A DNA stretch of 64,000 bases from assembly GCA_049997815.1 (NCBI GenBank), contig JBEKVQ010000002.1, forward strand, positions 74,483 through 138,482. The letters are read 5' to 3'. The notes under the pieces are model-generated. The model saw nothing but the letters and a program-made list of their open reading frames with translations. It did no database searches and was not told where the DNA came from. How positions within the stretch are numbered: position 1 is the stretch's first letter; every line of letters starts with the position of its first letter. This DNA comes from Minisyncoccia bacterium. Lineage in GTDB: Bacteria > Patescibacteriota > Minisyncoccia > UBA6257 > GWB1-50-10. Positions 71 to 36,660 of the stretch are shown in pieces. Position numbers and translations under genes: made by a program.

Positions 71-445
71 ATAAGTAGGTTTTGCTTAGAGTGAGGCTAG
101 GCAAGGTGTCTAGCCGTTAGCGTGAGAATGCTAATGGCTTTACGTTTTAGCGGAACAAGGGAGGAATCCCGCGTTCGGCTTTGCTGGTCTCGCTTCAAGC
201 GGGACTTTTACTTTTTAGATACTACCCCACCGTTTCCTTGAGCTTCCGCCGCTTACCTCACTTAGGCGGTGGTCGAAAAGCCGGGTTAAATGGTGTTCCG
301 AAACCCAAAAGGTCGGCGGCTTGAAACGAAAAATCGTTTCCAAGTCCGAAAAATCGAAAATATTAAGTCGAAAACAAAACAATTAGCCGATTCAATTAAA
401 TAAGCGATTATTTCTTTGTTTTGGTTATTTGTACTAATTACAGTA

Positions 446-14438: not shown

Positions 14439-14984
14439 ATGAAAACCCTGGGAAACTTCCTAGCCAGCTTGGTCGTCAAGATCTTAGTTTGGTTTCTCAA
14501 GTACCTTCCGTCTCTGGAGGAGAGGTTAACCGTTGCTTTATTGAGGAACTTACATTGGCCCCTCAAACAGTCCATATTCTCGGCCATCGTCAATAAAACC
14601 GTCTCCGTTCCGATTGAGCTCGCCGTGTTCGACGAACAGGGCCGGGTTTTGATGTTCTACCGCCGGGACGATGAGTACGACGGTTACCACATACCGGGAA
14701 CCGTTCTCCGGGACAATGAGGACGTTCCGGCGGCAATCCGACGGCTTCTGAAGAGTGAAGTGGTGGGGGGTAGGGTTACTCAGATTACTTCGCTCGGCTG
14801 GATAGAAATTCCAAAGGGAGATAATCCGACCCGTCACGAGATATCGCTTCTCCACTCGTGCGTGCTCGAAGGCCCGTATAACGGAAAAAGCGGGGAGTTC
14901 TTTTTCCCCGACAAACTTCCGTTCACTACTCTCGATCATCACCACACCTTGATCAAAGAAATAATGAAAAGGTCCGGAAGATAG
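14439..14984 (+). CDS. Nudix-fold hydrolase paralogue (Gmm-like, degenerate Nudix box)
   Basis: AAGGAG SD 8 nt upstream; IPGTVLRDNEDVPAAIRRLLKSEVVG; overall collinear similarity to 13716-14273. Confidence 0.6.
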   Translation: MKTLGNFLASLVVKILVWFLKYLPSLEERLTVALLRNLHWPLKQSIFSAIVNKTVSVPIELAVFDEQGRVLMFYRRDDEYDGYHIPGTVLRDNEDVPAAIRRLLKSEVVGGRVTQITSLGWIEIPKGDNPTRHEISLLHSCVLEGPYNGKSGEFFFPDKLPFTTLDHHHTLIKEIMKRSGR

Positions 14985-15094: not shown

Positions 15095-16036
15095 ATGAAA
15101 AAAATTCTCATCACCGGCGGCACGGGTTTCGTGGGCTCGAACTTCGTCTATAAATTCCTTAAATTGGGAGACGAGGTTCATCTTCTCGTGAGGCCGGAAG
15201 CGAAATTCTGGAGAATCGAGCCGGTAAAGAGCAGGGTTAAGCTGCACAACGTCGATATCACGAATGATAGCGATGTCGACAAATTCATTTCGGAGCTTAG
15301 GCCAGAGATCATTCTTCACTTCGCCACTTACGGCGCGTATCAATGGAAAGAGCAGGACGTAAAAACGACGATAGACACCAATCTCCTCGGCACCGTCAAT
15401 CTGGTGAACGCCTGTAGTAAAATCGGTTTCGAGTGTTTCATAAACACCGGGAGCACTTCCGAATACGGCGAAAAGAAAGCGCCTATGAAGGAGACCGACC
15501 TGCTCGAGCCGAATAATCTATACGGCACGACTAAGGCCGCCGCAACGCTATATTGCCAGTTTCTAGCAAAAAAATTGGACCTCCCGTTAGCCACGATGCG
15601 CCTCTTCTCGCCCTACGGATATTTCGAAGGCGAGGGTCGCTTGATGCCCGCGCTCGTGCGGGCCGCGCTCTACGGAGAAAAATTCGAAGCCCCATCCCCG
15701 TCGATCGTGAGGGACTTTATCTTCATTGAAGACGTGGTAAGCGCGTATTTGAAAGCTATAGGGAAAATCGGTAGCATTAAGGGGCAGATTTTAAACATCG
15801 CATCCGGCGAAGAACATTCCATCGGGGAAGCTGTGGAAATCGTGGAAAGAATTTCCGGCGCAAAGATCGAGGCGAATTACGGAAAAATTCCGCCGAGGCA
15901 GACGGAACCGAAAAGATGGGTGGCCGACATAACGAAAGCGAAGACGTTGCTTGATTGGAAACCCGAGAATTCTTTATTTGACGGCCTGTCAAAATTCATC
16001 GCGTGGGCAAAAAATAACGAAGTATTCATAAAATAA
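15095..16036 (+). CDS. NAD-dependent epimerase/dehydratase (extended SDR)
   Basis: MKKILITGGTGFVGSNFV, YGTTKAAATLYCQ (YxxxK). Confidence 0.85.
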   Translation: MKKILITGGTGFVGSNFVYKFLKLGDEVHLLVRPEAKFWRIEPVKSRVKLHNVDITNDSDVDKFISELRPEIILHFATYGAYQWKEQDVKTTIDTNLLGTVNLVNACSKIGFECFINTGSTSEYGEKKAPMKETDLLEPNNLYGTTKAAATLYCQFLAKKLDLPLATMRLFSPYGYFEGEGRLMPALVRAALYGEKFEAPSPSIVRDFIFIEDVVSAYLKAIGKIGSIKGQILNIASGEEHSIGEAVEIVERISGAKIEANYGKIPPRQTEPKRWVADITKAKTLLDWKPENSLFDGLSKFIAWAKNNEVFIK

Positions 16037-16857
16037 TGCAAAAGAAACAGATTCTGAATTTGGAAGAGAAAGCCAGGGAATTGCGGAGCCAGATCGTGAG
16101 AATGATCTACAGGGCCAGGGCTTCCCACATCGCCTCCGCCTACTCGGTTCTGGATATCGTGCTTTATTTGTACGGTTTTATTTTGCGCGTAGACCCCAAA
16201 AATCCCAAGAGTCCGGAGAGAGACCGGTTCATTCTGAGTAAGGGATGGGCGGCATCCGCTCTTTACGTTGTCCTGGCCGACAAGGGATTCTTTAAAATGA
16301 AGGAACTGGATTCTTATTGCACGGACGGAAGCAAGTTCATAGGTATTGCCACCATGAGCGGCGTCCCCGGCATAGAGACCACAACCGGCTCGATGGGTCA
16401 TGGTTTACCAGTGGGAGCCGGCATGGCGGTCGCCGGAAAGAAACTCAAGAGCAAGCGGAGGGTGTTCGCGGTCATAAGCGACGGCGAATTGGACGAGGGT
16501 TCTACTTGGGAAGCCATTCTTTTCGCCGGCCACAATCATTTGGATAATCTCGTCATCGTCGTGGACTATAATGGGCTGCAGTCGTTTGGCCGAACCAAAG
16601 ATATTCTGAATCTCGATCCCTTACCGGATAAGTTCAAAGCGTTCGGCTGGGCGGTAACGGAAACGAAGGGGCATGATTTTTCTTTCCTTGCAAGAGCGTT
16701 CGCCAAGCTCCCGCTCCAAAAAGGCAAGCCAACCGCGATAATCGCCCACACCGTAAAGGGCAAGGGCGTGTCTTTCATGGAGAACAAGAATGAATGGCAC
16801 TATAAATACCCCAACGAAGCGGATTTGGCGGCCGCTCTTAAGGAACTCTCAAACTAA
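16036..16857 (+). CDS. Transketolase N-terminal (ThDP-binding) subunit of a split transketolase
   Basis: HGLPVGAGMAVAGKKLKSKRRVFAVISDGELDEGSTWEA (GDG ThDP motif), DPKNPKSPERDRFILSKG. Confidence 0.85.
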   Translation: MQKKQILNLEEKARELRSQIVRMIYRARASHIASAYSVLDIVLYLYGFILRVDPKNPKSPERDRFILSKGWAASALYVVLADKGFFKMKELDSYCTDGSKFIGIATMSGVPGIETTTGSMGHGLPVGAGMAVAGKKLKSKRRVFAVISDGELDEGSTWEAILFAGHNHLDNLVIVVDYNGLQSFGRTKDILNLDPLPDKFKAFGWAVTETKGHDFSFLARAFAKLPLQKGKPTAIIAHTVKGKGVSFMENKNEWHYKYPNEADLAAALKELSN

Positions 16858-16858
16858 C

Positions 16859-17794
16859 ATGCGCGGAACTTTCGTAAAAACATTGATGGGGATGATGGAA
16901 AAAGACGAAAAGATAATCGTCGTTACCGCCGATATGGGGTACGGTACTTTCGAGGCATTGAGGGATAAATTCCCGGACCGGTTCATAAATACGGGCGTCT
17001 CGGAAGCCAATGCGGCCGGCGTTTCGGCTGGCTTGGCCCTCTCCGGCTATACCGTCTTCTTTTACGCGCAGGCGGCCTTCGTGACACTCCGATGTTTTGA
17101 GCAGGTCCGCCTGGATATTGCCTCCAACGATTTGGACGTAAAGCTGGTGGGCACTTCGGCGGGATTTACGCTTTGCCAATACGGCGTGAGCCACTTTGCG
17201 CTTGAGGATGTGGCGGCAATGCGTTCCCTGCCCAATATGACGGTAATGTGCCCGGGAGACATTTACGAAGCGGAGTGGGCGACGAAGGCATCGTGCTCAT
17301 TCAAAGGGCCGGCCTACATAAGAATAGGGCGCAGCAACAGCGGACCGGACGTGTTCATCCATCCGAAGAAACCCAGTTTAAAGATCGGGGAGCCGATCAT
17401 TATAAGGAAAGGGGACAAGGCGACCGTAGTTTCAACAGGGAGCATGCTCTTCTTAGCCAGAGAGGTTGAAAAGGAGCTCCATGCCAAAAAGATAAACGCA
17501 TCCCTGGTTTCTATGCCGACCGTAAAGCCGCTCAACGGCCCGAAGACCCTAAACTTATTCAAGAAGAATAAAGCCGTGTATGTGATGGAAGAACACAGTG
17601 TAATCGGTGGTTTGGGTTCGGCCATTTCCGAACTGGTCACAGATAGAGGACTGCCGTACAAGGTGGTCAGGCTGGGGACCGGAGACAAGTTTTTGCATGT
17701 CGCCGGCTCGCGAGATTATTTGCTCTCGCTCCACGGGCTTACGGCAAAGAAAATCGCCGCCCGTATAGCCCGGGACATAAAGGATAAAAAATAA
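16859..17794 (+). CDS. Transketolase C-terminal (pyrimidine-binding + C-terminal domain) subunit
   Basis: ATG immediately after upstream stop; ITADMGYGTFEALRDKFPDRFINTGVSEANAAGVSAGLALSG. Confidence 0.8.
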   Translation: MRGTFVKTLMGMMEKDEKIIVVTADMGYGTFEALRDKFPDRFINTGVSEANAAGVSAGLALSGYTVFFYAQAAFVTLRCFEQVRLDIASNDLDVKLVGTSAGFTLCQYGVSHFALEDVAAMRSLPNMTVMCPGDIYEAEWATKASCSFKGPAYIRIGRSNSGPDVFIHPKKPSLKIGEPIIIRKGDKATVVSTGSMLFLAREVEKELHAKKINASLVSMPTVKPLNGPKTLNLFKKNKAVYVMEEHSVIGGLGSAISELVTDRGLPYKVVRLGTGDKFLHVAGSRDYLLSLHGLTAKKIAARIARDIKDKK

Positions 17795-19034: not shown

Positions 19035-20081
19035 ATGGCAACCATTACACACATCATAAATCCAAACCCTCGGCTTACGAAACATCTGGTTTCGAAGAAC
19101 GAATTCGCGGAAGAGCTGTTGACCGTCGTCGACGGGGGTGCAAAGGGTGGATTTGAAGAGTGTTGGAACTGGTATTCCGGACAGATACGGCTCCTCGGTT
19201 TTGAACCGAATGTCGCCGAGTATAAGAAACTAAAAAAGGAGATTGTGAAGGCCGGGCAGCGATATTTCCCGACGGCTCTCTCCGATAAAAAAGGGCGCCG
19301 TGCTCTCAGGATCTATGAACTTGCGGCGGCGACCTCTTTTTTGAGGCCGAATTTCCGATTTCTTAAGCGACTGCCTAGCTCGGAGAGCTTTACACTCAAA
19401 AAGAGAATCTCCGTACCCACCGATAATCTCGATTCGATCGTGCGCTCGATAGGACTCAATGCCGTGGATTTCATAAAGCTCGATACGCAGGGAACGGAAC
19501 TCGAGATCCTGCGGGGAGCGAAAAGAATACTGCGTTCCGCACTCGGAGTGACCGTAGAGTGTGCGTTTAATCCGTTTTATGAAAAAGAAACGACGTTTAC
19601 GGATATCGACCGATTTCTGAAACCGTTGGGTTTCTCGCTCTTCAATTTGCCTACGTTCCGTTATGCGCGGACCGAGCTCTCGGTATATCAGGGGACGAGA
19701 ATTCATCAGAATACCAATCCCCATGGCCAGGTTTGCTGGTGCGAGGCGCTCTACTTCCGAGATGCGGCGGATGAAATTCTTCATGGGAAAGGCACTAAAT
19801 GGAAACGTCCCCGGATTTTGAAACTTGCGAGCCTAATGGAGCTTTTCAGCTTCCAGGATTGTGCGATGGAATTACTTCGCGTCGCTTCTGAGGCAGGACG
19901 ACTCAAGGGCGATGATTTGAAGCAAATGTTCGAATTTTTGGTTCCCGATGTCGATGGGGAAGAATACCCGTACGCCGCGTACGTTGAATATATGAGAGCA
20001 ACGCATGAACTCGATTTCCAGAAACGGACGGAGTTCGCGAAACTAAAACGCTCATCGAAAGGAAGGAGAAATCAATCATGA
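19035..20081 (+). CDS. FkbM-family methyltransferase
   Basis: VVDGGAKGGFEE, IKLDTQGTELEILRGAK (FkbM motifs); GAGGA SD. Confidence 0.75.
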   Translation: MATITHIINPNPRLTKHLVSKNEFAEELLTVVDGGAKGGFEECWNWYSGQIRLLGFEPNVAEYKKLKKEIVKAGQRYFPTALSDKKGRRALRIYELAAATSFLRPNFRFLKRLPSSESFTLKKRISVPTDNLDSIVRSIGLNAVDFIKLDTQGTELEILRGAKRILRSALGVTVECAFNPFYEKETTFTDIDRFLKPLGFSLFNLPTFRYARTELSVYQGTRIHQNTNPHGQVCWCEALYFRDAADEILHGKGTKWKRPRILKLASLMELFSFQDCAMELLRVASEAGRLKGDDLKQMFEFLVPDVDGEEYPYAAYVEYMRATHELDFQKRTEFAKLKRSSKGRRNQS

Positions 20082-20584
20082 GATTCGAGAAAACCAAATT
20101 GGACGGAGTCCTGCTTATCACGCCGGACATCAATGATACCGATTTCCGCGGCCCCTACGTCGAGCCCTACAATAAGAAAGAGTTCGCCGAAAATGGGATA
20201 AATATAGATTTTGTCGTGGACGACTTTTCGATGTCATTCCGGGGAGTATTGCGCGGCCTTCATGGGGATCAGGAAACGTATAAGCTTGTCTCCTGCCGCA
20301 TCGGGCAGCTCTATCTCGTGGTTCTGAATTATGACGAAAATTCGCCGCAGTTCGGTCAGTGGCAGAGTTTCTCCTTAAGCGACACGAATCATCAGCAGGT
20401 GCTTATCCCCCCGAAGTTCGCTAACGGCCACCTGGCGCTTTCCGAACGGGTAATGTTCTCCTACAAACAGTCGGAGTATTATCATCCGGAACGGCAGTTC
20501 TCGGTCAGATTCGATGACTCACGGTTCAACATCTGGTGGCCCATTAAGAACCCCATTCGTTCGCTAAGGGATGAGGGAAAGTAG
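20078..20584 (+). CDS. RmlC-like cupin sugar-nucleotide 3,5-epimerase (dTDP-4-dehydrorhamnose 3,5-epimerase family)
   Basis: ATGA overlap; GVLRGLHGD, QQVLIPPKFANGH, strong SD GGAAGGAG. Confidence 0.8.
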   Translation: MRFEKTKLDGVLLITPDINDTDFRGPYVEPYNKKEFAENGINIDFVVDDFSMSFRGVLRGLHGDQETYKLVSCRIGQLYLVVLNYDENSPQFGQWQSFSLSDTNHQQVLIPPKFANGHLALSERVMFSYKQSEYYHPERQFSVRFDDSRFNIWWPIKNPIRSLRDEGK

Positions 20585-20758: not shown

Positions 20759-22567
20759 ATGGAAAACCTAACTGCTGGACGGCCGACGATTGCCGAACTG
20801 GTCGAAAAATCGAAACACATCCGCAACCTTATTCTTAATATGTGCGAGAAGGCGGGAACGGGTCACGTGAATTCGTCCTATTCCTGCATCGAGCTTATGG
20901 TTGCGCTCTATCACGGGGGAATCCTCGAATTCGATCCGAAGAACCCGAAGTGGAACGATCGCGACCGGTTCATTCTGAGTAAAGGACAAGCCAGTCCGGG
21001 ACTGTATGTGGTCCTTGCTGATTTGGGATTCTTCCCGTTGGAGGAACTCGACCATTTTAATCGTGCCGAAGGAATTTTCGGCGTGCATCTCCAAAACACC
21101 GTTCCGGGAGTCGAGATAACCTCCGGTTCATTGGGACACGGTTTCGGGGTAGCGCAGGGAATCGCCCTTGCCGAGAAAATGGACGGGAAACACCACCTTG
21201 TCGTGACACTCCTCGGAGACGGAGAGTGCTACGAAGGGTCCGTGTGGGAAACGGCGATGCTTGCGAGTCATCATCGGCTCAATAATCTGGTCGCCATCGT
21301 CGACCGGAACTACATGTGCGCCATTGATTTTACGGAAGACGTTAATCAGCTTGAACCGCTCGATAAGAAGTGGGAATCGTTTGGATGGAGAGTCGTCCGC
21401 ATTAACGGCCATTCCTTTGAACAGATTTTTGCGGCTTTCGACGGGATTCGTTCTCGGCGTTCGACGCAACCCCTGCTCATCATCGCGGATACCGTGAAAG
21501 GCAAAGGTGTGGGGTTCATGAGTGATTCTCCGTTCTGGCATTCGCAGGCTCCTAAGGGAAAGTTCTTTACCATTGCCCAGCAGGAGCTGAACGAGAATGT
21601 CCGGCCCCAGCGGCAGGTGGAGCATGAGATCGTCAAAAGACCCTCGATGCGGGATGCGTTCTGGAACAAGATTTACGACCTCGCGGTTCTCGACCGAAAT
21701 TTAATCCTCGTCTCGGCGGATCAAAATTCGCCGACCCTCGACGATGATTTCCGGAAGAAGATCCCCCAGCAGTTCCTGAACGTGGGGATCGCCGAGCAGA
21801 ACATGGTTCTCGTTGCTGCCGGACTTGCCATAGGGGGCAAGAAGGCGTTCGCGCATGCTATTGCTCCATTCATCACGCTTCGGTGTTATGAGCATATCAA
21901 AATGCAGCTTTCGGCGATGAAGATACCAGTGACGCTTGTGGGAGTGGGGGCTGGATTCAGTTATCCCGACTCTGGACCCACGCACCACACACTTGAAGAT
22001 CTCTCCATTATGCGGACCCTGCCCAATATGCTGGTTCATAATATCTCGGATGACGTGATGGCTGCGGCTTTCGCTCTAATCGCCTATCGCGAACAGCGTC
22101 CACGCTATATACGTCTGGACCGGGAGGCGTGCCCCAATATTCACCAGGCGGACGCCGATTTTTCGAGTGGTGTAGCACTTCTTCGGGATGGCGACGGTCC
22201 ATGCATCGTTGCTACCGGTAATATGGTTCATCGGGCGCTTGCAGTCGCCGAGAATCTCAGTCAAACGATTCCGGGGATCAGGGTTGTAGAGATATATACC
22301 TTCCCCGTGAATCTCGGCGCGTTCGCTGAAGCGATTGGTCCATCGAAACGGGTAGTGACCCTGGAAGAACACTTCCTACCTGGAGGATTGGGGAGTGCAG
22401 TCACTGAGGCGCTCGCGGATTCCGGTATTTGTGTGCCGGTCAAACGGATTGGTGTGGATCCATCGAAGGGATACTGCTACCGATACGGCGGCCGCGGAAA
22501 CATCCAGTTGCAGTATGGGTTGGACGAAGAGAGCATTATCGGCAAGGTCTCGCTGTTCTTGCAGTAG
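20759..22567 (+). CDS. Fused (N+C) transketolase-family enzyme, paralogue of the split pair at 16036-17794
   Basis: DPKNPKWNDRDRFILSKGQASPGLYVVLADLGFF nearly identical in pattern to the split N subunit; GDGECYEGSVWE ThDP motif; 602 aa. Confidence 0.85.
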   Translation: MENLTAGRPTIAELVEKSKHIRNLILNMCEKAGTGHVNSSYSCIELMVALYHGGILEFDPKNPKWNDRDRFILSKGQASPGLYVVLADLGFFPLEELDHFNRAEGIFGVHLQNTVPGVEITSGSLGHGFGVAQGIALAEKMDGKHHLVVTLLGDGECYEGSVWETAMLASHHRLNNLVAIVDRNYMCAIDFTEDVNQLEPLDKKWESFGWRVVRINGHSFEQIFAAFDGIRSRRSTQPLLIIADTVKGKGVGFMSDSPFWHSQAPKGKFFTIAQQELNENVRPQRQVEHEIVKRPSMRDAFWNKIYDLAVLDRNLILVSADQNSPTLDDDFRKKIPQQFLNVGIAEQNMVLVAAGLAIGGKKAFAHAIAPFITLRCYEHIKMQLSAMKIPVTLVGVGAGFSYPDSGPTHHTLEDLSIMRTLPNMLVHNISDDVMAAAFALIAYREQRPRYIRLDREACPNIHQADADFSSGVALLRDGDGPCIVATGNMVHRALAVAENLSQTIPGIRVVEIYTFPVNLGAFAEAIGPSKRVVTLEEHFLPGGLGSAVTEALADSGICVPVKRIGVDPSKGYCYRYGGRGNIQLQYGLDEESIIGKVSLFLQ

Positions 22568-22688: not shown

Positions 22689-22737
22689 TCTTTCAGTTTA
22701 ATTACCAATTTCACGTGCTTATGTAGGAGAATTGAGA

Positions 22738-23688
22738 ATGAAAACCGAAAGCGTTTTGACCACAGGTGATTTTGCCAGTTTAGTCGGCACAGATATCATA
22801 GATCTTAAAAAATATCTCCAAGGCCGGACATTGGACGGCAATTTTTTATACAGAGAACGCACCGGTACCGAGCGCGATGAAGCGATTCTCTTCGTACTCA
22901 AAAAGATCGGATCCGGCGAACTTCTGGTCGCGAGAGAACAGATGAATAAAGATTACTGGACGAATTATTGGGGGGATATTCTTAAGGATTTCCTCGCAAA
23001 CGGGTGTGATGTGACAAGGCTCACTCCTCAGTACATGCGCCGATATCCTTTCTTTCGGCTCTGCCGGAACTACGTCGATTCCGAAGATGCAACATTCACG
23101 ACACGGTGGTTTGATGTTCTGAAGACCTGTTTGTTCAGTCAATATTTGCGGGAGGCCGATTCGGTTTACGAATTCGGTTGCGGACCGGGGCACAATCTGG
23201 TGCTCCTCGCGAAGCTGTTTCCTGAGAAGAATCTTCTCGGATTCGACTGGGTGCAGCCGTCGGCGGATATTTTGACGGCCATGGCGAACGAACACCATTA
23301 CCGCCTCACGGGAGGAGTTTTCGATATTTACTCGCCTGACGAGAGTATCGCGTTTCCACCCTTAAGTGCCGTGATGACAATCCATGCTTTGGAGCAGATC
23401 GGACCGAACTTCGAGCCGTTCCTGGATTTCCTCCTCAGAAAGTCACCCGCGCTGTGCCTTCACATCGAGCCCATTTACGAGCTCTACGATCCGGACAACC
23501 TGATTGATTGGCTCGCCATGGAGTTTCACCGGAAACGGAAGTATCTTGATGGTTTCCTGACCCGTCTCAAGGAACTCGATGAGAGAGGTGTTATCGAACT
23601 CATAAAGGTGCAACGAGTGCCCTTCGGAAGCACATTTCACGATCCTTACTCGTACATCGTGTGGCGGCCGTTGCGAAAAAAGATCTGA
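22738..23688 (+). CDS. Putative class I SAM-dependent methyltransferase
   Basis: VYEFGCGPGHNLVLLAKLFPEKNLLGFDWV (motif I-like); TTG at 22732 is an alternative start. Confidence 0.65.
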   Translation: MKTESVLTTGDFASLVGTDIIDLKKYLQGRTLDGNFLYRERTGTERDEAILFVLKKIGSGELLVAREQMNKDYWTNYWGDILKDFLANGCDVTRLTPQYMRRYPFFRLCRNYVDSEDATFTTRWFDVLKTCLFSQYLREADSVYEFGCGPGHNLVLLAKLFPEKNLLGFDWVQPSADILTAMANEHHYRLTGGVFDIYSPDESIAFPPLSAVMTIHALEQIGPNFEPFLDFLLRKSPALCLHIEPIYELYDPDNLIDWLAMEFHRKRKYLDGFLTRLKELDERGVIELIKVQRVPFGSTFHDPYSYIVWRPLRKKI

Positions 23689-23725: not shown

Positions 23726-23763
23726 CCCTCCTCTGCCCAATAGCGGAGGGGGATTTTTATTTC
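23726..23763 (+). terminator. Rho-independent terminator (+ strand)
   Basis: ccctcc-(13 nt)-ggaggg + atttttattt. Confidence 0.55.
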
Positions 23764-23775
23764 ACGGATATAAAA

Positions 23776-23800
23776 ATACACCACTGTGTCAGTGGTGTAT
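23776..23800 (-). terminator. Perfect 11-bp hairpin terminator for the minus-strand radical SAM gene
   Basis: atacaccactg-tgt-cagtggtgtat; U-run on minus strand (ttttatatccg). Confidence 0.7.
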
Positions 23801-23825
23801 TGAATTTAAATGGGATTGCAGTGAA

Positions 23826-25340
23826 TTATTTAGCCAGGTGATTTCTTTTCAGGCTAATTGCTGATTCCTCCTTAATCTTGTCTACGGTTGGTTCGCCGAA
23901 TTTTCTGCGGATCATTTCAAGATGAGCAGGGTTAGTGAAGCAGGTTTTCCACGCCCAATCTCTGAACTGGAGAACCTGCTGGCCGGTTAAATATCGGGTC
24001 GGCAAGGGCAGGGTATTTTCGGAATGTTGCGAGTAGCCATCCCAACTTTTTGGAAGCGGCCATCCCTCCTTCACGGCTAGATTGTAGAGCTGTGAACCGG
24101 GATAGGCCATTGCCGAATAAAAATTGGAATATTCGCAATTCAATTCCATCGCCTGAGAGAGCGTTTGTTGCATCGAGTCGTAATCGTCCTCAGGGAGTCC
24201 GAAGATGTAATTAGCAGCGACGTAAATTCCGCCGTCTCTGACTTGTTTTATCACGGAAAAAACATCGCTGTCCTTGAATTCCCCTTTCCTTGCATCATTA
24301 CGCACTCGTTCGCTTGCCGCCTCGATTCCGAAGCAAAGCCAACGGAAGCCGGCCCTTCTTAACTTTTCGATAATTTCGTCTCCGGAGATCGTGTCAACGC
24401 GGGTATAGGCCCAGATATTCAGGTCATATCCCCGTTCGATAATCAAATCGCAGATGCCGTTCACGTGTTTCATGTTCAATACAAACATTTCATCCGCAAA
24501 CTTGATGTTCTTTATTCCGAACTTCTCGACGAGAAAACCTATCTGGTCCACAACGAGCTTTGGGTTCCAAAACCGGTAACTGTTTACTTCGGATTTGATT
24601 CCCATCGCGCCTTCCCCGCTTTTGAAAGGAGCTTGAATACAGCAGAAAGAACAGTGATACGGACAACCCAGGGTCGTGTATATTGAGGCATAAGGTTGCC
24701 GTATCAAATCTCCGTAAGAATGCCATAGGTTCGTCCTGTAGAGGTTCATCGGTAAAAGATCCCAGGCGATCCCATTCATTTCTTCGTTGAGATTTTTTAC
24801 GAGAGGAGCCGGTGAGGTCGTTACCAATTCATCGTCTGATTTGTATATCAGGCCCCTGACTTTCCGGTAATCAGTTTCCCTTACCTTTATCGCTTCAGTC
24901 AGGTCGAGTAAGGTGTAGGGTCCTTCCCCCGTGCAAACAAAGTCAACGCACTCCTCGTTCAACGTTTTTTCCGGAAGAGCGGCCACATGTCCTCCGATCA
25001 TGATGATCTTCAGATTCGGATCGGCTTCTTTGATCGCCCTTGCAATCCTGCCGGCCGAAGGCATTACCTGCGTTGATGCGGAAGGATTATGGCCATAGCA
25101 GACTATTGCAACGAGTTCGGGATTGATATCGGCAACTCGACTTGCAACTTCTTTCGGATCAAGACGTTCGACATATGCATCGATGATGGAGGAAGAAATA
25201 TTTTTCTTTCTCAAGAAGGTTGCTAAAAGTCCTGCCCAAATCGGATTTTCGCAGGCACTTTGTCGGTTTCCCAATTCTTGATAGATTTCAACGTTGTCTC
25301 CCGGAGCTATCATTACCACATCTAATCCCTTGGTCTTCAT
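23826..25340 (-). CDS. Cobalamin (B12)-binding radical SAM enzyme (class B radical SAM, probable methyltransferase)
   Basis: N-terminal B12-binding-like region (VVMIAPGDN...PELVAIVCYGHNPSAS); CPYHCSFC CxxxCxxC cluster. Confidence 0.8.
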   Translation of the reverse strand: MKTKGLDVVMIAPGDNVEIYQELGNRQSACENPIWAGLLATFLRKKNISSSIIDAYVERLDPKEVASRVADINPELVAIVCYGHNPSASTQVMPSAGRIARAIKEADPNLKIIMIGGHVAALPEKTLNEECVDFVCTGEGPYTLLDLTEAIKVRETDYRKVRGLIYKSDDELVTTSPAPLVKNLNEEMNGIAWDLLPMNLYRTNLWHSYGDLIRQPYASIYTTLGCPYHCSFCCIQAPFKSGEGAMGIKSEVNSYRFWNPKLVVDQIGFLVEKFGIKNIKFADEMFVLNMKHVNGICDLIIERGYDLNIWAYTRVDTISGDEIIEKLRRAGFRWLCFGIEAASERVRNDARKGEFKDSDVFSVIKQVRDGGIYVAANYIFGLPEDDYDSMQQTLSQAMELNCEYSNFYSAMAYPGSQLYNLAVKEGWPLPKSWDGYSQHSENTLPLPTRYLTGQQVLQFRDWAWKTCFTNPAHLEMIRRKFGEPTVDKIKEESAISLKRNHLAK

Positions 25341-25470
25341 GACGTCGTCCCCTTATTTGGTTTTTGGTTTCAAGAATCTAGTTCGAGCATAACTATTTTT
25401 TGGGGATTTGGCAAGCCCCTGAGGGTTTCGGCTCTATTCCGAACAAATCGTTCATCACCATTGGGAGGGG

Positions 25471-25498
25471 TTGCACACTTAGGGCGAGAGGGTGTAAT
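25471..25498 (+). promoter_or_regulatory. Putative promoter TTGCAC-16-TGTAAT
   Basis: ttgcac 25471-76; tgtaat 25493-98. Confidence 0.35.
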
Positions 25499-25533
25499 TT
25501 TAATAACATCGTTACAGGAAATATTGTTTCAAA

Positions 25534-26472
25534 ATGGCAAAAATATTAGTTACAGGTGGCGCGGGGTATATCGGTTCCGTTCTCGTTCCGGAGCTTTTGC
25601 GGGCGGAACATGAAGTTACGGTTATCGATAATTTTCTCTATGGTCAAACCCCGTTTTTGGAAGTATGCCACATTAAACATTTCACGATTGTGAGGGGAGA
25701 TGCTCGTGATAGAGAACTGATTGCGAAGCATATTGTCGGGAAAGATTATATTATTCCGCTCGCGTGCCTCGTAGGAGCGCCGGTTTGCGACCGGGACCCT
25801 ATTACCGCGAGGACCACGAATGTGGGGGCCGTGGAACTAATCTTGAAATTAAGGAAGCCCGGGCAAAGGATTATCTTCCCGAATACGAACAGTGGATACG
25901 GAACAGGCCGAGGCGACACGACGTTTTGCACGGAAGAGACCCCGCTTAACCCGATATCCCTGTATGGCCGGCTTAAGGTGGAGGCGGAGCGCAAGATCCT
26001 CGAAGCGGGAGAGGCGATAACGTTCCGTTTGGCAACCGTCTGTGGCATGAGCCCGCGTATGCGTTTGGATCTTCTCGTTAATGACTTCGTATACCGCGCC
26101 GTGAACGACCGATTCATCGTTCTTTTTGAAGCCCACTTCAAGCGGAACTTCATCCATGTGCGGGATGTCGCTCGCGCATTTGTGCATGCGATAGACAACT
26201 TCGAGGCCATGAAAAATAATGCCTACAATGTGGGTCTGTCGGACGCGAATCTGAGCAAGTGGGAACTCTGTGAAGAGATAAAAAAGCACGTTCCCGACTT
26301 CGTGTGCATTTCCTCCGGGGTGGGTAAAGATGTTGATCAAAGAAACTACATCGTCAGCAATGCAAAAATAGAACTGACTGGATTCAAGCCCATCACCCCT
26401 CTCGCGGACGCCATACCCGAACTCATCAAGGGGTTCACGATCGTCAAGAGGAATATGTACGGAAACGTCTAG
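25534..26472 (+). CDS. NAD-dependent epimerase/dehydratase (extended SDR)
   Basis: MAKILVTGGAGYIGSVLV; YGRLKVEAE. Confidence 0.8.
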   Translation: MAKILVTGGAGYIGSVLVPELLRAEHEVTVIDNFLYGQTPFLEVCHIKHFTIVRGDARDRELIAKHIVGKDYIIPLACLVGAPVCDRDPITARTTNVGAVELILKLRKPGQRIIFPNTNSGYGTGRGDTTFCTEETPLNPISLYGRLKVEAERKILEAGEAITFRLATVCGMSPRMRLDLLVNDFVYRAVNDRFIVLFEAHFKRNFIHVRDVARAFVHAIDNFEAMKNNAYNVGLSDANLSKWELCEEIKKHVPDFVCISSGVGKDVDQRNYIVSNAKIELTGFKPITPLADAIPELIKGFTIVKRNMYGNV

Positions 26473-26601: not shown

Positions 26602-28071
26602 ATGATAGAAAACCTAAAAAACCTTTTCTTTGATCAGAAAAGCCAAAAGAAGACCGTTTTAAAGAATTTTCTGTGGTTGGGAACCAGTCAGGTTGGAGGC
26701 CGACTCATTAGAGGCATAATCACGATTTATTCTGCGCGCGCCTTGGGAACTGCTGGCTACGGCGTATTTTCCTATGCGATGGGACTTGCCGCTTTCTTTA
26801 TTTTTTTCAAGAACATCGGCGTGGACTCCATCCTAACTAGGGAAGTAGCACACCGGCCGTCGGAAAGAGATAGATTATTTGCGACCTCATTCTGGCTGGA
26901 GGTTGGTTTGCTCGTGATTACCGCGCTCCTCCTCCTTTTTGTGGCTCCGCTTTTTAGTCACATTCCCGAAGCTCTCGCCTTGATTCCGGCAGTGACCCTA
27001 ATGATCGTGGCGGATGATATGAAAGATCTTTTTATCGCTTTCTTCCGAGGAATAGAAAAAATGGAATGGGAAGCCGTGGTCACCGTTGCCTCCAATGTCG
27101 CCGTAGTTGTATTCGGTTTTGGCGCTCTCTTAATCTCGCCGACGCCGCTCTACCTTGCCTTGGCTTATGCTGCCGCCTCCGTTTTCGGGGTTCTTTTGGC
27201 CGGCGGCATAATTTTCGTCCGTCATGTTCGGGGGTTTTTCAAGAGTTTTGATAGCGGTTTGATTGCGCCCATTTTAATATCGGCCTGGCCGATCGCCATA
27301 GGGGGGCTGGCTGGCTTGTTCTTCTTTAATGTGGATATTATCATGCTGGGCTTTTGGCGAACCACCGATGATGTCGGTATCTATGCGGCCGTTCAAAAGA
27401 TTGTGGGTATTCTTTCGGTGATTCCGACCCTGATTATAACCAGCACCTTCCCGGTTTTTTCTAGGCTGGCCCATCAGAATGATTCGGTGCGAATGCGCCA
27501 GGCCATGGAAAGCGTAATTCGCATTCTTTTCCTGTTCTCGGTACCTCTTGTCTTGGGTGGCATTGTATTGGGTGCCCCCCTCCTGAACTTCATTTTCGGA
27601 AACGCTTACGGTTCGGGGGCAAGCGCCATGTCTATACTTTTGATTTCCATAATCGCCTCTTTCCCAACCGGCCTATTCTCTTATTTCATATTTGCCTATG
27701 ATAAGCAGCGCAAGATGGTTTTATATCCGATTATCGCCGCGCTGATCAACATTGGCCTGAATTTATTTTTGGTTCCTCGTTTTGGCATGATCGGCGCCTC
27801 GGTGGCAACCCTTACAACAAGCGTGATTTACTTTTTCTTGCTCTTCCAGCTTTGCTTGAAGATTGAACCGTTCTCATTATGGAGGGGATTCTCAAAGATT
27901 CTGGGTGTAGCGATACTCATGGCAATTTTTGCCTGGGTAATTCAATTGTCGGGCGTGCCAGTGCTCGCGAATATCGCTCTTTCCGCTGGGCTATACCTGT
28001 TCATTCTTAAGGTCCTAAAAGAAGAATCCCTGGAGGAGATTCTTTCTATGGTTCGTTCGACGCGGAGTTAG
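26602..28071 (+). CDS. Wzx-like oligosaccharide flippase (MOP/polysaccharide biosynthesis protein family)
   Basis: About 12-14 TM helices; paralogue of 42408-43880 (KKTVLKNFLWLG...IYSARALGTAGYGVFSYAMGLAAFF). Confidence 0.75.
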   Translation: MIENLKNLFFDQKSQKKTVLKNFLWLGTSQVGGRLIRGIITIYSARALGTAGYGVFSYAMGLAAFFIFFKNIGVDSILTREVAHRPSERDRLFATSFWLEVGLLVITALLLLFVAPLFSHIPEALALIPAVTLMIVADDMKDLFIAFFRGIEKMEWEAVVTVASNVAVVVFGFGALLISPTPLYLALAYAAASVFGVLLAGGIIFVRHVRGFFKSFDSGLIAPILISAWPIAIGGLAGLFFFNVDIIMLGFWRTTDDVGIYAAVQKIVGILSVIPTLIITSTFPVFSRLAHQNDSVRMRQAMESVIRILFLFSVPLVLGGIVLGAPLLNFIFGNAYGSGASAMSILLISIIASFPTGLFSYFIFAYDKQRKMVLYPIIAALINIGLNLFLVPRFGMIGASVATLTTSVIYFFLLFQLCLKIEPFSLWRGFSKILGVAILMAIFAWVIQLSGVPVLANIALSAGLYLFILKVLKEESLEEILSMVRSTRS

Positions 28072-30011
28072 CATTGTTTGGCGATATTTTCCAAGAGCTC
28101 CATCGTCGGCAGGACGTCCTCGGCCGTGACCGGAACCCTCTCGGTTTCGTCTTTAAGCGAAGAGATGAAGCCGTTGTAAATTTGGCGGTGCGAAAAGTTG
28201 CCGTCCTTCCTGATTTTTTTGTCTATAACGTATTGGACCATGGTCTTCACCGAATTTCTGAGGTCACTTAACGGACTGGGTGCTCCCGATTTTATTCGGA
28301 AGCTTTCCGGATAAAATCCGGCAAAATAGGTTTTGTTTTCCGACCGCGCTTCAATGAAAGTCTCGGAATGTGGCGGGAACATCTTAAGGTCAAGAATAAT
28401 ATCATTTCCATTTTTCGTTGCAACGGTGCCCTCCAAATTAACGAGAATCCCACTCGAATCATGCTCGGTTTTTAGCCGTTCTGCCTTTTTGAAATCTCCA
28501 GCTAGTTCCACCCCCAAATCGATGAAGTGGTAAGCCATATCGTAGAGAAGCGCGTTCTTCATCTTTTCGCGCCAACCGCCGGCGCTTTTGATGACGGGGC
28601 CGCTCCAGAATCTGACTCTAACCAAGTTTATTTTCGCGCCGTCTTTTCTCATGGCCGATTTCATCGCGAGTATGTTCCTTCGGAATCGGTAATTGTTAAT
28701 GACGCATATTTTGGCGTTGCTCCCATCGGCCATCTTCGCAATTTCTCTGGATTCAAGGAGATTTAGCGCAAGAGGTTTCTCTATCATCAGATTGATCCCC
28801 GCACCGCTGAGTTCTCGGGCGATGTCGAGGTGGGTGGCGGGTGGAGTAGAGACGGCGACGAAATCTAATTTCCGGTTTTTAAATTCGCTTATCGCTCGAA
28901 CCGCTTCGGCTTTCGGAAAGAAATCATCCCTTATCTGCTTTGCGGACTTCTCGTCTATATCGTAGATCGCTTCCACTTTTATTCTCAGATTCCCGATAAT
29001 GACCGGCAGATGAAGCGTCCTCATGGCAAAACCGCAGCCAATTATGCCGATTCGGACCGGGCCGTAGTGAAAATCAACCATTTGTTTCATCGCTTCCCTG
29101 AAAGGTACAACGGCCTTCCAGCCAAGTTCCGATTTTAGATTTTCCGCAGAGTAGTAAATGTCTTTTTGGGCCCGGGCGAGGAGGTAACCGTATCGGCCTA
29201 AAATAGGGTTCAGCACGAAGAATGATTTTGGTACAAATAACATTCTTTTCCCGTCGGGAGCAAATTCGTTGAAATATTCGACTATTTCCCGAGTGGTCGG
29301 CTGTTCGTCCGAGACCACGTTATAAGTTCCGCTCTCCTTCCCGCTACCCTTAATGGCGGCCTTAACCGCTCCATGAAGGTCGTCAATGTGGATGTAGGGG
29401 AGGCGTTTGTCGCCCATTCCGAGATTTATGCCCACGCTGCCCCTTATGATGCCGCAGCCCATAAGCGGCATTTTCATGTTTGGAGCGTAGACGAGGCCGG
29501 CCCGGAGAATCGTGACCGGCAATTCAGAAGAATCAATTTTTGAGGCGATGGATTGTTCGCCCAATGCTTTGGTTTTCGCGTACCAACCCCGCAGATCCAT
29601 GTGGGGCTCGAAGGGGGTATCCTCGGTTACAACGGAATTCGCCGCCTGGTTCAGGTCGTAGATGCTTACGGAACTCATATAGACCAATCGCTCTTTTTTG
29701 TTTTTCTCGCAAAGTTTGAAAATGAGTTCCGAACCCTTCACGGTCGTGTTGTAGTAATCGTCGTAAGTACCACCGGTGCCGGCGGCGAGATGGACGATGA
29801 TATCGGATTCTTTTACGAAGTTCTCCAGGTTTTTCTCGTCGTTGATGTCACCCTCGAAGATTCTCAGTTTTTCGCCGTATCGTTTCGCTAGAAAATCTAT
29901 CTTCGCTGCATTTCTTACGTAAGCGTTCACGAAGTATCCATCGTCGATGAATTTTTTGACGAAGTGCTTGCCTACGAATCCGCTTGCACCCGTGATGCCT
30001 ATTTTCTTCAT
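28068..30011 (-). CDS. Bifunctional fusion: N-terminal NAD-dependent epimerase/dehydratase (SDR) + C-terminal Gfo/Idh/MocA oxidoreductase
   Basis: MKKIGITGASGFVGKHFV...YAKTK; then IGIIGCGFAMRTLHLPVI...MIEKPLALN. Confidence 0.8.
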   Translation of the reverse strand: MKKIGITGASGFVGKHFVKKFIDDGYFVNAYVRNAAKIDFLAKRYGEKLRIFEGDINDEKNLENFVKESDIIVHLAAGTGGTYDDYYNTTVKGSELIFKLCEKNKKERLVYMSSVSIYDLNQAANSVVTEDTPFEPHMDLRGWYAKTKALGEQSIASKIDSSELPVTILRAGLVYAPNMKMPLMGCGIIRGSVGINLGMGDKRLPYIHIDDLHGAVKAAIKGSGKESGTYNVVSDEQPTTREIVEYFNEFAPDGKRMLFVPKSFFVLNPILGRYGYLLARAQKDIYYSAENLKSELGWKAVVPFREAMKQMVDFHYGPVRIGIIGCGFAMRTLHLPVIIGNLRIKVEAIYDIDEKSAKQIRDDFFPKAEAVRAISEFKNRKLDFVAVSTPPATHLDIARELSGAGINLMIEKPLALNLLESREIAKMADGSNAKICVINNYRFRRNILAMKSAMRKDGAKINLVRVRFWSGPVIKSAGGWREKMKNALLYDMAYHFIDLGVELAGDFKKAERLKTEHDSSGILVNLEGTVATKNGNDIILDLKMFPPHSETFIEARSENKTYFAGFYPESFRIKSGAPSPLSDLRNSVKTMVQYVIDKKIRKDGNFSHRQIYNGFISSLKDETERVPVTAEDVLPTMELLENIAKQC

Positions 30012-34509: not shown

Positions 34510-36660
34510 ATGAAACAGGTATTCCAAAATCCGAAATCGGGCAAGACACGGGTGGAAGAAATCATTCCGCCTATTTTGCGTTCCGGCGGAGTCCTGGTTA
34601 AAAACCGCTATTCGGTCATCAGTGCCGGAACCGAGCGGGGTATTATAGAACTCTCAAAGAAGAGCTTGCTCCAAAAAGCGAAAGAGCGGCCGGATTACGT
34701 CCGAAAATTCTTCATACTCGTGAAGACCAAGGGATTCAAGTGGGCATGGGGCGTAGCTCAAGCGAAGCTAGAAAAAGACATTGCTTTGGGTTATTCCAGT
34801 GCCGGGGAGGTGATCGCCGCGGGGCGCGAAGTTGAGGAATTTCGCGCGGGCGACCGGGTAGCCTGCGCCGGCCAGGATTACGCTTCGCACGCCGAGGTAA
34901 TCGCGGTGCCAAAGAACCTTTGCGTGAAGATACCGGCGAATGTTTCCGAGAAGGATGCCGCTTTTACGACGATCGCTTCGATCGCCATGCAGGGTATCCG
35001 TCGCGCCAACCTCGCACCGGGCGAAAAGGTAGCCGTTGTCGGTCTCGGCCTGCTCGGACAATTGGCGGTGAGGATGCTCCGTGCTTACGGCCATCCGGTC
35101 ATCGGCTTTGACGTGAATCCCGCGCAGCTCTCTTTTGCGAAGGAGAACGGCATGGATGAGGGGGCCTTAACGGATGATAAGGATATAGACGGTAAGGTTT
35201 CCAAATTTACGTTCGGTAGAGGGGTGGACGCCGTCCTAATCTATGCGAGCGCGAAGACCGACGAGCCGTTGAAATTGGCCGTCAAGATTTCCCGCGACCG
35301 GGGGCGCATCGTACAGATAGGAAACATCCAAGCGGATATTCCCTGGCGCGACTTCCATCCGAAGGAACTTTCGTATTTCTCGTCCCGTTCCTACGGCCCG
35401 GGCCGTTATGACAAAAATTATGAGGAAAGAGGAATGGACTATCCGATTGGCTATGTCCGCTGGACGGAAAGAAGGAACATGGAAGAATTCTTGCGCCTCT
35501 TGTCCGACGGGAAAATCTCGGTGGAAAATCTCGTTACGAAAACCTTTCCCATAAGTGAGGCTGAAAAGGCCTACGAACTCGTTTTCAATCCGAAAGGCCC
35601 GGTGCGCGGAGTGGTTTTGGAATACCCCGAAGCGGCGAAATTCGAACGGAAGATGACATTTAAACCGTTACTGTCGCAGGCAAGCAGTTCGCCTACGGAA
35701 GTGAAGATTGGGATAATCGGAGCGGGATCGTTCATGAAATCGGAAATTCTCCCGCATTTGAAAAAAACCGTTGGAGCGAAAGTGAGGGCCATTGCCCACT
35801 CGAAGGGATTGGATGCGAACGCCATCGCCAAGGAATGGGGCGCGGAGTACGTGACGAACGATTATCACGATATCTTGAATGACAAGGACATCAATCTGGT
35901 CATTTGTGCTTTGCGCCACGCCGACCACGCGAAGGTCGCAAAGGAGGCGCTTGAGGCGGGAAAGAACGTTCATATGGAAAAGCCGCTCGCTTTGGACGAA
36001 ACCGAGCTGAACGAAGTGATGGAAGTGGCGAAACGTTCCAAGGGAAGGTTGTTCGTTGGCTTCAATCGCAGATTTTCCGGCCACTTCGCGGAAGCGAAGA
36101 AGGCGTTCGAAAATTGCCCCACTCCGCTTCAGGTGGTCTATCGGGTGAATGTGCCCCTTACGGAGGAGCACTGGTCCCAAGATCAGAAGGAGGGCGGCCG
36201 CCTCATCGGCGAGGGGTGCCACTTTGCGAACGCGCTCCAATTTCTTATCGGGAGCCGGCCGGTCAGGGTGACGGCATCATCGATACCGGTGGGCGGAGTA
36301 GTTAAACACGAAGAAAATTTCTCGTTCTCGGTTGAGTTCGAGAACGGCTCGCTGGGAACGGTGGTTTACTCCGGGTTGGGTAATTTCCGCCTGCCTAAGG
36401 AATACGTGGAGATTTACGCCGGAGGCAACATCTTCGTCATAGACAATTTCAAGGACGGGAGATTCATCACTTCCGTGAAAACCAAAAAATTCAACTTCTC
36501 GAGACAGAATAAGGGATATCTGGAAGAATTGCAGGGAGAGATAGATGCGATAAGAAACGGTAAGCCGTCGCCTATATCCCTTGAGGAGATCTATCTTTCC
36601 CATCTCGCCATTTTCAAAGTTGCCGAGGCGCTCAAGACCGGCGGGCATGCAGGGATTTAA
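34510..36660 (+). CDS. Bi-domain oxidoreductase: N-terminal MDR/zinc-type alcohol dehydrogenase-like + C-terminal Gfo/Idh/MocA
   Basis: GDRVACAGQDYASHAEV, VAVVGLGLLGQLAVRML; KIGIIGAGSFMKSEILPHL, VHMEKPLALDETE. Confidence 0.8.
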   Translation: MKQVFQNPKSGKTRVEEIIPPILRSGGVLVKNRYSVISAGTERGIIELSKKSLLQKAKERPDYVRKFFILVKTKGFKWAWGVAQAKLEKDIALGYSSAGEVIAAGREVEEFRAGDRVACAGQDYASHAEVIAVPKNLCVKIPANVSEKDAAFTTIASIAMQGIRRANLAPGEKVAVVGLGLLGQLAVRMLRAYGHPVIGFDVNPAQLSFAKENGMDEGALTDDKDIDGKVSKFTFGRGVDAVLIYASAKTDEPLKLAVKISRDRGRIVQIGNIQADIPWRDFHPKELSYFSSRSYGPGRYDKNYEERGMDYPIGYVRWTERRNMEEFLRLLSDGKISVENLVTKTFPISEAEKAYELVFNPKGPVRGVVLEYPEAAKFERKMTFKPLLSQASSSPTEVKIGIIGAGSFMKSEILPHLKKTVGAKVRAIAHSKGLDANAIAKEWGAEYVTNDYHDILNDKDINLVICALRHADHAKVAKEALEAGKNVHMEKPLALDETELNEVMEVAKRSKGRLFVGFNRRFSGHFAEAKKAFENCPTPLQVVYRVNVPLTEEHWSQDQKEGGRLIGEGCHFANALQFLIGSRPVRVTASSIPVGGVVKHEENFSFSVEFENGSLGTVVYSGLGNFRLPKEYVEIYAGGNIFVIDNFKDGRFITSVKTKKFNFSRQNKGYLEELQGEIDAIRNGKPSPISLEEIYLSHLAIFKVAEALKTGGHAGI

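Follow-up and report, generated by a model that had tools for sequence, protein, structure and literature searches.

Class B radical S-adenosylmethionine (SAM) enzymes catalyse C-H functionalisations that rank among the most difficult in biology, and the reaction is known for a few dozen of them only. Most of the characterised members are methylases. GenK and Fom3, for example, methylate hydroxymethyl carbons, in the case of Fom3 on a nucleotide-linked substrate. Here we describe a gene for a protein of this class, located at positions 23826 to 25340 on the minus strand of a 64,000-nucleotide stretch of DNA from Minisyncoccia bacterium (assembly GCA_049997815.1, contig JBEKVQ010000002.1, positions 74,483 to 138,482 of the forward strand). 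This whole stretch is called the window in the following. The comparison with related loci in other genomes indicates that the protein, an uncharacterised variant of a known enzyme class, belongs to a nucleotide-sugar module that is conserved and has apparently not been described before.

Two described pathways are close to this module. The capsular guanosine diphosphate (GDP)-heptoses of Campylobacter jejuni are synthesized by the C4-dehydrogenase Cj1427, a C3-dehydratase, C3/C5-epimerases and C4-reductases (PMC10680097). Cj1427 is a ping-pong enzyme, in which alpha-ketoglutarate re-oxidises the bound NADH and is released as L-2-hydroxyglutarate. Its product was converted in vitro to GDP-3-deoxy-4-keto-heptose by a C3-dehydratase dependent on pyridoxal phosphate (PLP) (PMC10680097). 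No thiamine diphosphate (ThDP)-dependent enzyme and no radical SAM enzyme is described in that study.

The second pathway, leading to yersiniose, combines 3-dehydration by an enzyme of the E1/ColD type, ThDP-dependent branching by YerE and reduction by YerF. The module reported here follows the same logic of dehydratase, C2 transfer and reductase, and its clusters in Magnetospirillum magneticum AMB-1 and in two Chloroflexi even share with YerE the acetolactate synthase (ALS)-type ThDP family. However, it would start from a heptose, and a C4-dehydrogenase takes the place of the 4,6-dehydratase. Furthermore, its ThDP enzymes are mostly of the E1 alpha/beta or the transketolase type, and a class B radical SAM enzyme is added, which is absent from the yersiniose pathway.

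The gene at 23826-25340 has an ATG start codon and encodes 504 amino acids. The protein matches the Pfam domains B12-binding (PF02310, residues 32-146, 56.8 bits, cut-off 32.1) and Radical_SAM (PF04055, residues 220-395, 49.7 bits, cut-off 29.5). Its cluster motif CPYHCSFC (C226-PYH-C230-SF-C233) has the form CxxxCxxC. An alignment of 20 family members shows no variation at the three cysteines or at many positions of the N-terminal domain, e.g. G116-G117-H118 and G138-E139-G140. An AlphaFold model built on the same alignment (pLDDT 79.9, pTM 0.83) was compared with the PDB by Foldseek. The top matches, AprD4, TsrM, MgmA, CysS, OxsB and TokK, all belong to class B (E 1e-17 to 1e-12), and the matches to MiaB and RimO are weaker (E 1e-9 to 1e-7). 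Profile alignments run through the B12-type domain in the case of OxsB (36-393), TsrM (37-406), CysS (72-237) and TokK (96-235), whereas that of AprD4 is confined to the radical SAM core (190-428). These results identify the product as a true class B radical SAM enzyme, in which an N-terminal Rossmann domain of the cobalamin-binding type is followed by a [4Fe-4S]/SAM core. An earlier note, made from the letters of the window alone, had proposed this pairing of domains together with its check by hidden Markov models, and both came out as expected. Two limits apply to the class assignment. The TM-scores of the six class B structures are similar (0.53-0.61), for methylases and non-methylases alike, so that the fold comparison does not separate them. 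In addition, AprD4 has no need for cobalamin, and the class B fold by itself is thus no proof of cobalamin use.

Within class B, no curated NCBIfam cut-off was reached by the protein. The best model is HpnJ (TIGR03471, 150.4 bits, cut-off 577.6, E 7e-44), followed by BchE (TIGR02026, 147.5 bits, cut-off 481.35, E 5e-43), and the ladderane-associated protein and ApyD score 91 and 88 bits. Among the methylase models, PhpK yields 89 bits (cut-off 600), the MgmA-type model 83 (360), HpnR 64 (650), KedN5 62 (700) and the TsrM-type model 37 (500). No GenK- or Fom3-specific model is found among the library matches. The identity to any named protein is about 25%, and to BchE/HpnJ genes on plasmids about 24-27%. 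With HpnJ and BchE the protein shares the class B architecture, the best curated matches and a link to five-membered carbocycles, and HpnJ also acts on a sugar moiety. Membership in either family failed, however, since the scores are far below the cut-offs and the window, a context of glycan biosynthesis only, contains neither hopanoid nor chlorophyll genes. GenK and Fom3, for their part, share the class B architecture and provide the precedent of methylation on a sugar or nucleotide-linked substrate, but there is no membership at the sequence level, and the ThDP/heptose context belongs to the family described here and not to GenK or Fom3. The assignment to the GenK/Fom3 family in the earlier note had to be given up, the non-methylases HpnJ and BchE scoring above all methylase models. 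A grouping with tRNA/rRNA-modifying or B12-independent families, which the note had raised as a counter-argument and which was checked for MiaB/RimO, RlmN/Cfr, MnmL/YtqA and HemN-type proteins, was not seen either: RNA-modification models stay below 20 bits (TIGR01212, 19 bits), HemN-type models reach 26 bits, and the folds of MiaB and RimO are the weaker matches. Judged by these scores, the protein is best placed in an orphan clade within class B.

This clade is large. Of 8000 scored database clusters, 7937 match the protein with E<=1e-10, many of them with 57-67% identity, and a second protein search with an Azospirillum member gave 7849 clusters at E<=1e-100. No Burkholderia was found among the best 120 matches listed for the latter search. 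A scan with one genome per species detected relatives in at least 588 genomes. The best 80 relatives are 52-60% identical and come from many phyla: Cyanobacteria, Nitrospirota, Planctomycetota (including Kuenenia), Verrucomicrobiota, Acidobacteriota, Binatia and Desulfobacterota, furthermore Myxococcota, Chloroflexota, Omnitrophota, Elusimicrobiota, Poribacteria, Methylomirabilis, Spirochaetales and the candidate phyla radiation (CPR; Liptonbacteria). Under the accession MGC9603067.1, the same amino acid sequence has been deposited as 'cobalamin-dependent protein [Minisyncoccia bacterium]', encoded on a contig of 395 kb. In full-text literature searches we found neither a characterised member of the family nor a description of the conserved module. 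One family member, P0028, is 878 amino acids long and carries a LAGLIDADG_3 domain (PF14528), which points to an intein within the radical SAM protein.

For the analysis of the gene context, 80 related loci with flanks of 10 kb each were searched by tblastn with the proteins of the window and by de novo clustering of open reading frames (ORFs). Frequencies of partner genes refer to the 46 loci with adequate flanks and to partners within 10 kb of the radical SAM gene. A pair of ThDP enzyme genes was detected in 45/46 loci, a GHMP kinase most similar to HddA in 42, and an orthologue of the short-chain dehydrogenase/reductase (SDR) encoded next to the radical SAM gene in the window in 38 (median identity to the window protein 55%; 53/80 of all loci). 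HddC-like nucleotidyltransferases and Fcl-like epimerases/reductases are present in 27 loci each, and an LhgO-like flavoprotein in nine. GmhA and GmhB sometimes join the HddA- and HddC-like genes. The typical gene order is represented by the cultured cyanobacterium Floridaenema: SDR, HddC-like, GmhB, GmhA, NUDIX, HddA-like, Fcl-like, E1 alpha, E1 beta, ColD-like and radical SAM. The same set is located on plasmid pDMC1 of Solidesulfovibrio magneticus, where it ends in lhgO and a carrier-dependent glycosyltransferase, and also on Azospirillum plasmids. In Azospirillum lipoferum 4B, 20 kb separate the partner genes from the radical SAM gene, and both are located on one island. Judging from this gene content, we regard the radical SAM family as a fixed component of a nucleotide-sugar pathway and not as a stray insertion.

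The ThDP enzyme is the most constant partner and at the same time variable in type. Over the 80 loci, E1 alpha/beta pairs (49) and split transketolases (17) prevail. A third type, ALS/YerE-like (TPP_enzyme_N/M/C), is encoded in M. magneticum AMB-1 and in the two Chloroflexi loci (L021, L036). The occurrence of three unrelated ThDP families at the same position indicates that ThDP-mediated C2 transfer from a 2-keto acid is what matters, and this non-orthologous replacement argues that the task of the radical SAM enzyme is coupled to the C2-transfer step. Directly after the split transketolase pair, four loci (L031, L026, L017 and L061) carry a gene for a D-2-hydroxyacid dehydrogenase (cluster c24), which may fit hydroxypyruvate as the C2 donor in these cases. 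To our knowledge, neither a ThDP nor a radical SAM enzyme is encoded in the heptose clusters of C. jejuni.

Two further partners help to define the sugar. A DegT-family neighbour is found in 57/80 loci, and 57/60 members have a histidine in place of the catalytic lysine, as expected for a 3-dehydratase of the ColD/E1 type and not for an aminotransferase. The [Fe-S] motif of E1-type enzymes (CxCxxC...C) is present in just 2/60 of these proteins and not in the 3-dehydrase of the window, which points to a ColD-like use of the cofactor. An SDR with the signature of 4,6-dehydratases is encoded in only 11/80 loci. The 4-keto intermediate of the canonical clusters is thus likely made without loss of O6, so that the C6 and C7 hydroxyls of a heptose would be kept.

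The SDR partner in the window (25534-26472, plus strand, 312 aa) is the divergent neighbour of the radical SAM gene. It shows 55.7% identity over 309 residues (E 2.5e-112) to PDB entries 6vo6/6vo8; 6vo6, which we take to be Cj1427, bears the title 'putative sugar-nucleotide epimerase/dehydratase'. The Ser...YxxxK residues are present, and the Asp-Glu pair of 4,6-dehydratases is absent. The similarity to the C. jejuni pathway extends to the HddA-, HddC-, GmhA- and GmhB-like genes of the canonical clusters and to a 3-dehydratase that would act on the product of the Cj1427-type enzyme. The recurrent LhgO-like gene fits as well: an L-2-hydroxyglutarate oxidase would deal with the by-product of the dehydrogenase and lends independent support to a Cj1427-type activity of the SDR.

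Taken together, a pathway can be proposed from homology. A nucleoside diphosphate (NDP)-heptose, i.e. GDP-heptose in the canonical clusters, would serve as the activated starting sugar. It would be oxidised at C4 by the Cj1427-like dehydrogenase, deoxygenated at C3 by the ColD/E1-type 3-dehydratase and optionally epimerised at C5. The ThDP enzyme would then add a pyruvate-derived C2 acyl branch at the 4-keto carbon, in analogy to YerE in the yersiniose pathway. The radical SAM enzyme would cleave SAM reductively, and the resulting 5'-deoxyadenosyl radical would take a hydrogen from an unactivated carbon of the sugar, most likely at the exocyclic hydroxymethyl group (C7) or in the C2 branch. 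Finally, the substrate radical would receive a methyl group from methylcobalamin, in the manner of GenK and Fom3, yielding a chain- or branch-extended deoxy sugar. We put at roughly 85% the probability that the protein acts in radical tailoring within such a ThDP-branched deoxy-(hepto)se pathway. Methyl transfer as its chemical outcome is preferred narrowly and tentatively, as it is the commonest chemistry of class B enzymes and has a precedent in GenK and Fom3. The C-methyl branch on a sugar proposed in the earlier note thus keeps its sugar-tailoring context, which is now backed by conserved genes, while methylation is one of at least two comparably likely reactions.

Several observations speak against this view. 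No feature of the sequence singles out a methylase: the methylase models score 89 bits at most, compared to 150 for HpnJ and 147 for BchE, and the best PDB match by both sequence and fold is AprD4, a non-methylating dehydratase. A methylase acting on C7 alone would leave the near-obligate linkage to the ThDP enzyme without explanation. On a plasmid of Azospirillum thermophilum, E1 alpha/beta, DegT, SDR, kinase and NUDIX genes are present with no match to the radical SAM enzyme, so that its step may be an optional late tailoring. In the 64-kb window, tblastn with the canonical sequences detected no kinase, nucleotidyltransferase, GmhA or GmhB. This absence of heptose-activation genes makes the substrate less certain in this organism; a sugar other than the GDP-heptose of the canonical clusters may be used, or these genes may reside elsewhere on the 395-kb contig. 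The search for cobalamin uptake or salvage genes suggested in the earlier note was carried out on the window, and none was found among its about 50 annotated ORFs. Likewise, no cobalamin riboswitch or other Rfam family was detected in the window. The genome is labelled by its depositors as a metagenome-assembled genome of the CPR (Minisyncoccia), and CPR bacteria, as far as we know, are generally unable to make cobalamin. If the label is correct, cobalamin would have to be scavenged.

As an alternative to methyl transfer, the enzyme might close a caryose-type carbocycle by radical C-C bond formation, which we consider a serious if somewhat doubtful possibility. Hydrogen abstraction by the enzyme would leave a radical at C7 of a 3-deoxy-4-C-acetyl-heptose nucleotide, this radical would add to the branch carbonyl C8, and a cyclopentane (C4-C5-C6-C7-C8) fused to the pyranose would result. 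The product, a 4,8-cyclo-3,9-dideoxy-nonose, would resemble the caryose of Burkholderia caryophylli lipopolysaccharide. The two nearest curated families are both formers of five-membered carbocycles, BchE in the case of ring E of chlorophyll. According to a review from 2022 (PMC9092360), conversion of hexoses to five-membered carbocycles has been postulated for the radical SAM enzymes HpnJ, Cds and PtmC, in the case of HpnJ, which is uncharacterised in vitro, as a contraction of glucosamine to a cyclitol. The same review states that the origin of caryose is unknown.

The module can be mapped gene by gene onto such a product. Heptose activation corresponds to C1-C7 of caryose, the C4-dehydrogenase in place of a 4,6-dehydratase keeps O6 and O7, the ColD-type dehydratase supplies the 3-deoxy position, and the ThDP enzyme with pyruvate supplies C8-C9 and the 9-deoxy methyl group. 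The caryose structure behind this mapping is general background, only the name being taken from PMC9092360. Ring closure would explain the requirement for a heptose, as a hexose would yield a four-membered ring, and also why the ThDP enzyme is the tightest partner of the family. However, the exact step is without biochemical precedent, caryose is known from one species only, and the Fcl-like reductase of many clusters would have no obvious role after cyclisation. The score of BchE is also less telling than it seems, as clades of BchE-like proteins include methylases, namely BchQ and BchR.

A further alternative is a radical 1,2-diol dehydration as performed by AprD4, which would remove a hydroxyl group, e.g. 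from the 6,7-diol of the heptose, by a ketyl-radical mechanism and without cobalamin. The Cj1427-like or the Fcl-like SDR would then reduce the carbonyl, as AprD3 does, or the ThDP enzyme would use it as acceptor. AprD4 (6fd2) is indeed the best match among solved structures (E 2e-11 with the single sequence, 1.3e-18 with the family profile and 1e-17 by fold). AprD4/AprD3 also act on a sugar with an NAD(P)-dependent partner, which compares to the conserved SDR pairing of the family, and another route to deoxygenation could be useful in canonical clusters, most of which have no 4,6-dehydratase. We nevertheless consider this reaction improbable. The AprD4 model (NF033070) yields 61 bits with a cut-off of 500 and covers only residues 211-427, and membership thus failed both by score and by length. 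The sequence match to 6fd2 is likewise restricted to the radical SAM core; the N-terminal domain of AprD4 is not aligned, while the conserved one of the family matches cobalamin binders. Moreover, the SDR partner here is Cj1427-like, with 56% identity to a C4-dehydrogenase, and not a reductase of the AprD3 type.

The earlier note had also suggested that the gene was inserted as a module. This idea was rejected. The GC content of the gene (0.470) and of its third codon positions (GC3, 0.525) is ordinary for the window, its codon-usage divergence (Jensen-Shannon) is 0.035 compared to a window median of 0.045, and neither transposase or integrase genes nor flanking repeats were found near it. In the closest relative (67% identity) the radical SAM gene is convergent with an SDR and a split transketolase, and in a Liptonbacteria genome and in Azospirillum argentinense Az39 it is divergent from the transketolase pair. 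A placement on the opposite strand beside the partner genes is thus recurrent and no sign of recent insertion. A foreign module of recent arrival, or a housekeeping radical SAM enzyme (tRNA/rRNA modification or cofactor biosynthesis) present by chance, has only the opposite strand and the own terminator in its favour and is already largely refuted by the ordinary composition, the low scores of RNA-modification models and the linkage to sugar genes across many phyla, which leaves it a very slim chance.

Within the window, the radical SAM gene is the sole minus-strand gene among the Pfam-supported genes from 4160 to 28071 (23.9 kb), in agreement with the earlier note. The next gene (28068-30011) is also encoded on the minus strand, so that the plus-strand block ends there. 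A Shine-Dalgarno-like AAGGGG is located about 8 nt upstream of the start codon. The hairpin terminator claimed in that note was recovered as well: downstream of the stop codon, an intrinsic-terminator-like hairpin runs from 23801 to 23775 on the minus strand (23775-23801), with a perfect 12-bp stem, a 3-nt loop and a U-rich tail, and is followed by UUUUUAUAU. The 71-nt stretch analysed folds with -17 kcal/mol (z = -4.56), and none of 200 shuffled sequences folds as well. The convergent gene at 22732-23688 has a terminator-like hairpin of its own at 23727-23752 on the plus strand. With these separate terminators, both genes end back to back. On the other side, 193 bp (25341-25533) separate the radical SAM gene from the divergent SDR gene. 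This region, which contains a weak sigma-70-like match on the minus strand (25414-25386), is presumed to serve as bidirectional promoter region for both genes.

The surrounding DNA is filled by a glycan-biosynthesis island of about 58 kb, reaching from about 4 kb to 62 kb of the window. It encodes a Wzy-like protein, two Wzx-type flippases, an initiating sugar transferase, an ABC-2 exporter and many glycosyltransferases of the families GT1, GT2 and GT4. In addition, at least seven methyltransferase-like genes, a carbamoyltransferase, an AsnB-like amidotransferase and a glucuronyl C5-epimerase-like protein were detected. Neither an Fcl-like gene in the window nor a sugar nucleotidyltransferase in the island was found.

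Of the module, the window contains the SDR orthologue, transketolase-like ThDP enzymes, the 3-dehydrase and a NUDIX gene. The fused transketolase/DXS-like ThDP enzyme (20759-22567, plus strand, 602 aa) is the nearest counterpart of the split transketolase pair found with the radical SAM enzyme elsewhere (44%/41% identity). A second transketolase-like ThDP enzyme is split (16036-17794, plus strand), with an N-terminal part at 16036-16857 and a pyrimidine/C-terminal part at 16790-17794. The presence of two such enzymes in one cluster suggests two C2-transfer steps, or different donors or acceptors. The sugar 3-dehydrase of the E1/RfbH/ColD type (12272-13582, plus strand), dependent on pyridoxamine phosphate/PLP, has a histidine in place of the Schiff-base lysine (SFYASH). 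It scores 397 bits with RfbH (cut-off 423), matches PDB entry 3bcx with 1.5e-87 and has no CxC...C iron-sulfur motif as known from true E1 enzymes. No gene for an E3-type reductase was seen in the window. The NUDIX hydrolase is encoded at 14439-14984 on the plus strand, and NUDIX genes recur in the module elsewhere. Instead of the heptose-activation and Fcl-like genes, the window encodes, also on the plus strand, an NDP-hexose 4,6-dehydratase-like SDR (11235-12326; TIGR01181, 322 bits, cut-off 365) and a cupin of the RmlC-type 3,5-epimerases (20078-20584), which is related to GDP-4-keto-heptose 3,5-epimerases, too.

The convergent neighbour at 22732-23688 (plus strand, 318 aa, TTG start) is weakly similar to class I methyltransferases (EFGCGPGHN) and has no Pfam or NCBIfam match above threshold. 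It was considered as a functional partner of the radical SAM enzyme and rejected, as no homologue is encoded in any of the 80 related loci. This gene thus seems to be a local addition.

Some additional features of the window and of the related loci were noted. The gene at 28068-30011 (minus strand, 647 aa) encodes a fusion of an SDR epimerase/dehydratase with a GFO_IDH_MocA oxidoreductase, and that at 34510-36660 (plus strand, 716 aa) a fusion of a zinc-dependent alcohol dehydrogenase with GFO_IDH_MocA. Both fusions probably act in sugar redox reactions. In composition, the gene of a 1114-aa protein at 416-3760 stands out from the rest of the window (plus strand; GC 0.572, GC3 0.687, codon-usage divergence 0.14 compared to the median of 0.045), and only a weak peptidoglycan-binding match was obtained for this protein. 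On plasmid p6 of A. lipoferum 4B, genes for 5'-methylthioadenosine (MTA) phosphorylase and MtnA adjoin the SDR/E1 alpha/beta/DegT part (locus L097, 13931-16196), and these enzymes could dispose of 5'-deoxyadenosine or MTA from the radical SAM step. Plasmid p5 of A. argentinense Az39 encodes a second 'cobalamin-dependent protein' of 581 aa (L094, 7123-8868), which lies together with a class I methyltransferase beside the transketolase pair and opposite the member of the radical SAM family. Frequent neighbours of the module are GtrB/DPM1-like GT2 enzymes and large membrane glycosyltransferases that are GT-C/YfhO/PMT-like (L090, 21531-23057; L005, 2194-4611; L093, 7326-9713; clusters c13 and c18). 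Such neighbours suggest that polyprenyl phosphate serves as carrier of the sugar, which would then be attached as a decoration outside the cytoplasm.

The radical SAM family is among the larger orphan groups known to us, and its context is unusually informative and rigid. The conserved context turns an orphan radical SAM enzyme into a testable pathway with defined substrates, and these can be made with enzymes that were characterised for the heptoses of Campylobacter. Tractable hosts that carry the family are M. magneticum AMB-1 and A. argentinense Az39. The presence of the enzyme in a CPR genome implies either the scavenging of cobamides or a cobalamin-independent use of the fold. Either outcome, the C-methylation of a branched heptose or a carbocyclic nonose, would be a new nucleotide-sugar pathway. 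If the less favoured ring closure should prove true, the open question of caryose biosynthesis would be solved, and the radical SAM family would be the missing carbocycle-forming enzyme. In this case, higher sugars with a carbocycle would not be peculiar to a single plant pathogen, but widespread surface decorations, carried by Nitrospira, Planctomycetes, Cyanobacteria, Verrucomicrobia, Magnetospirillum, Azospirillum and even CPR bacteria.

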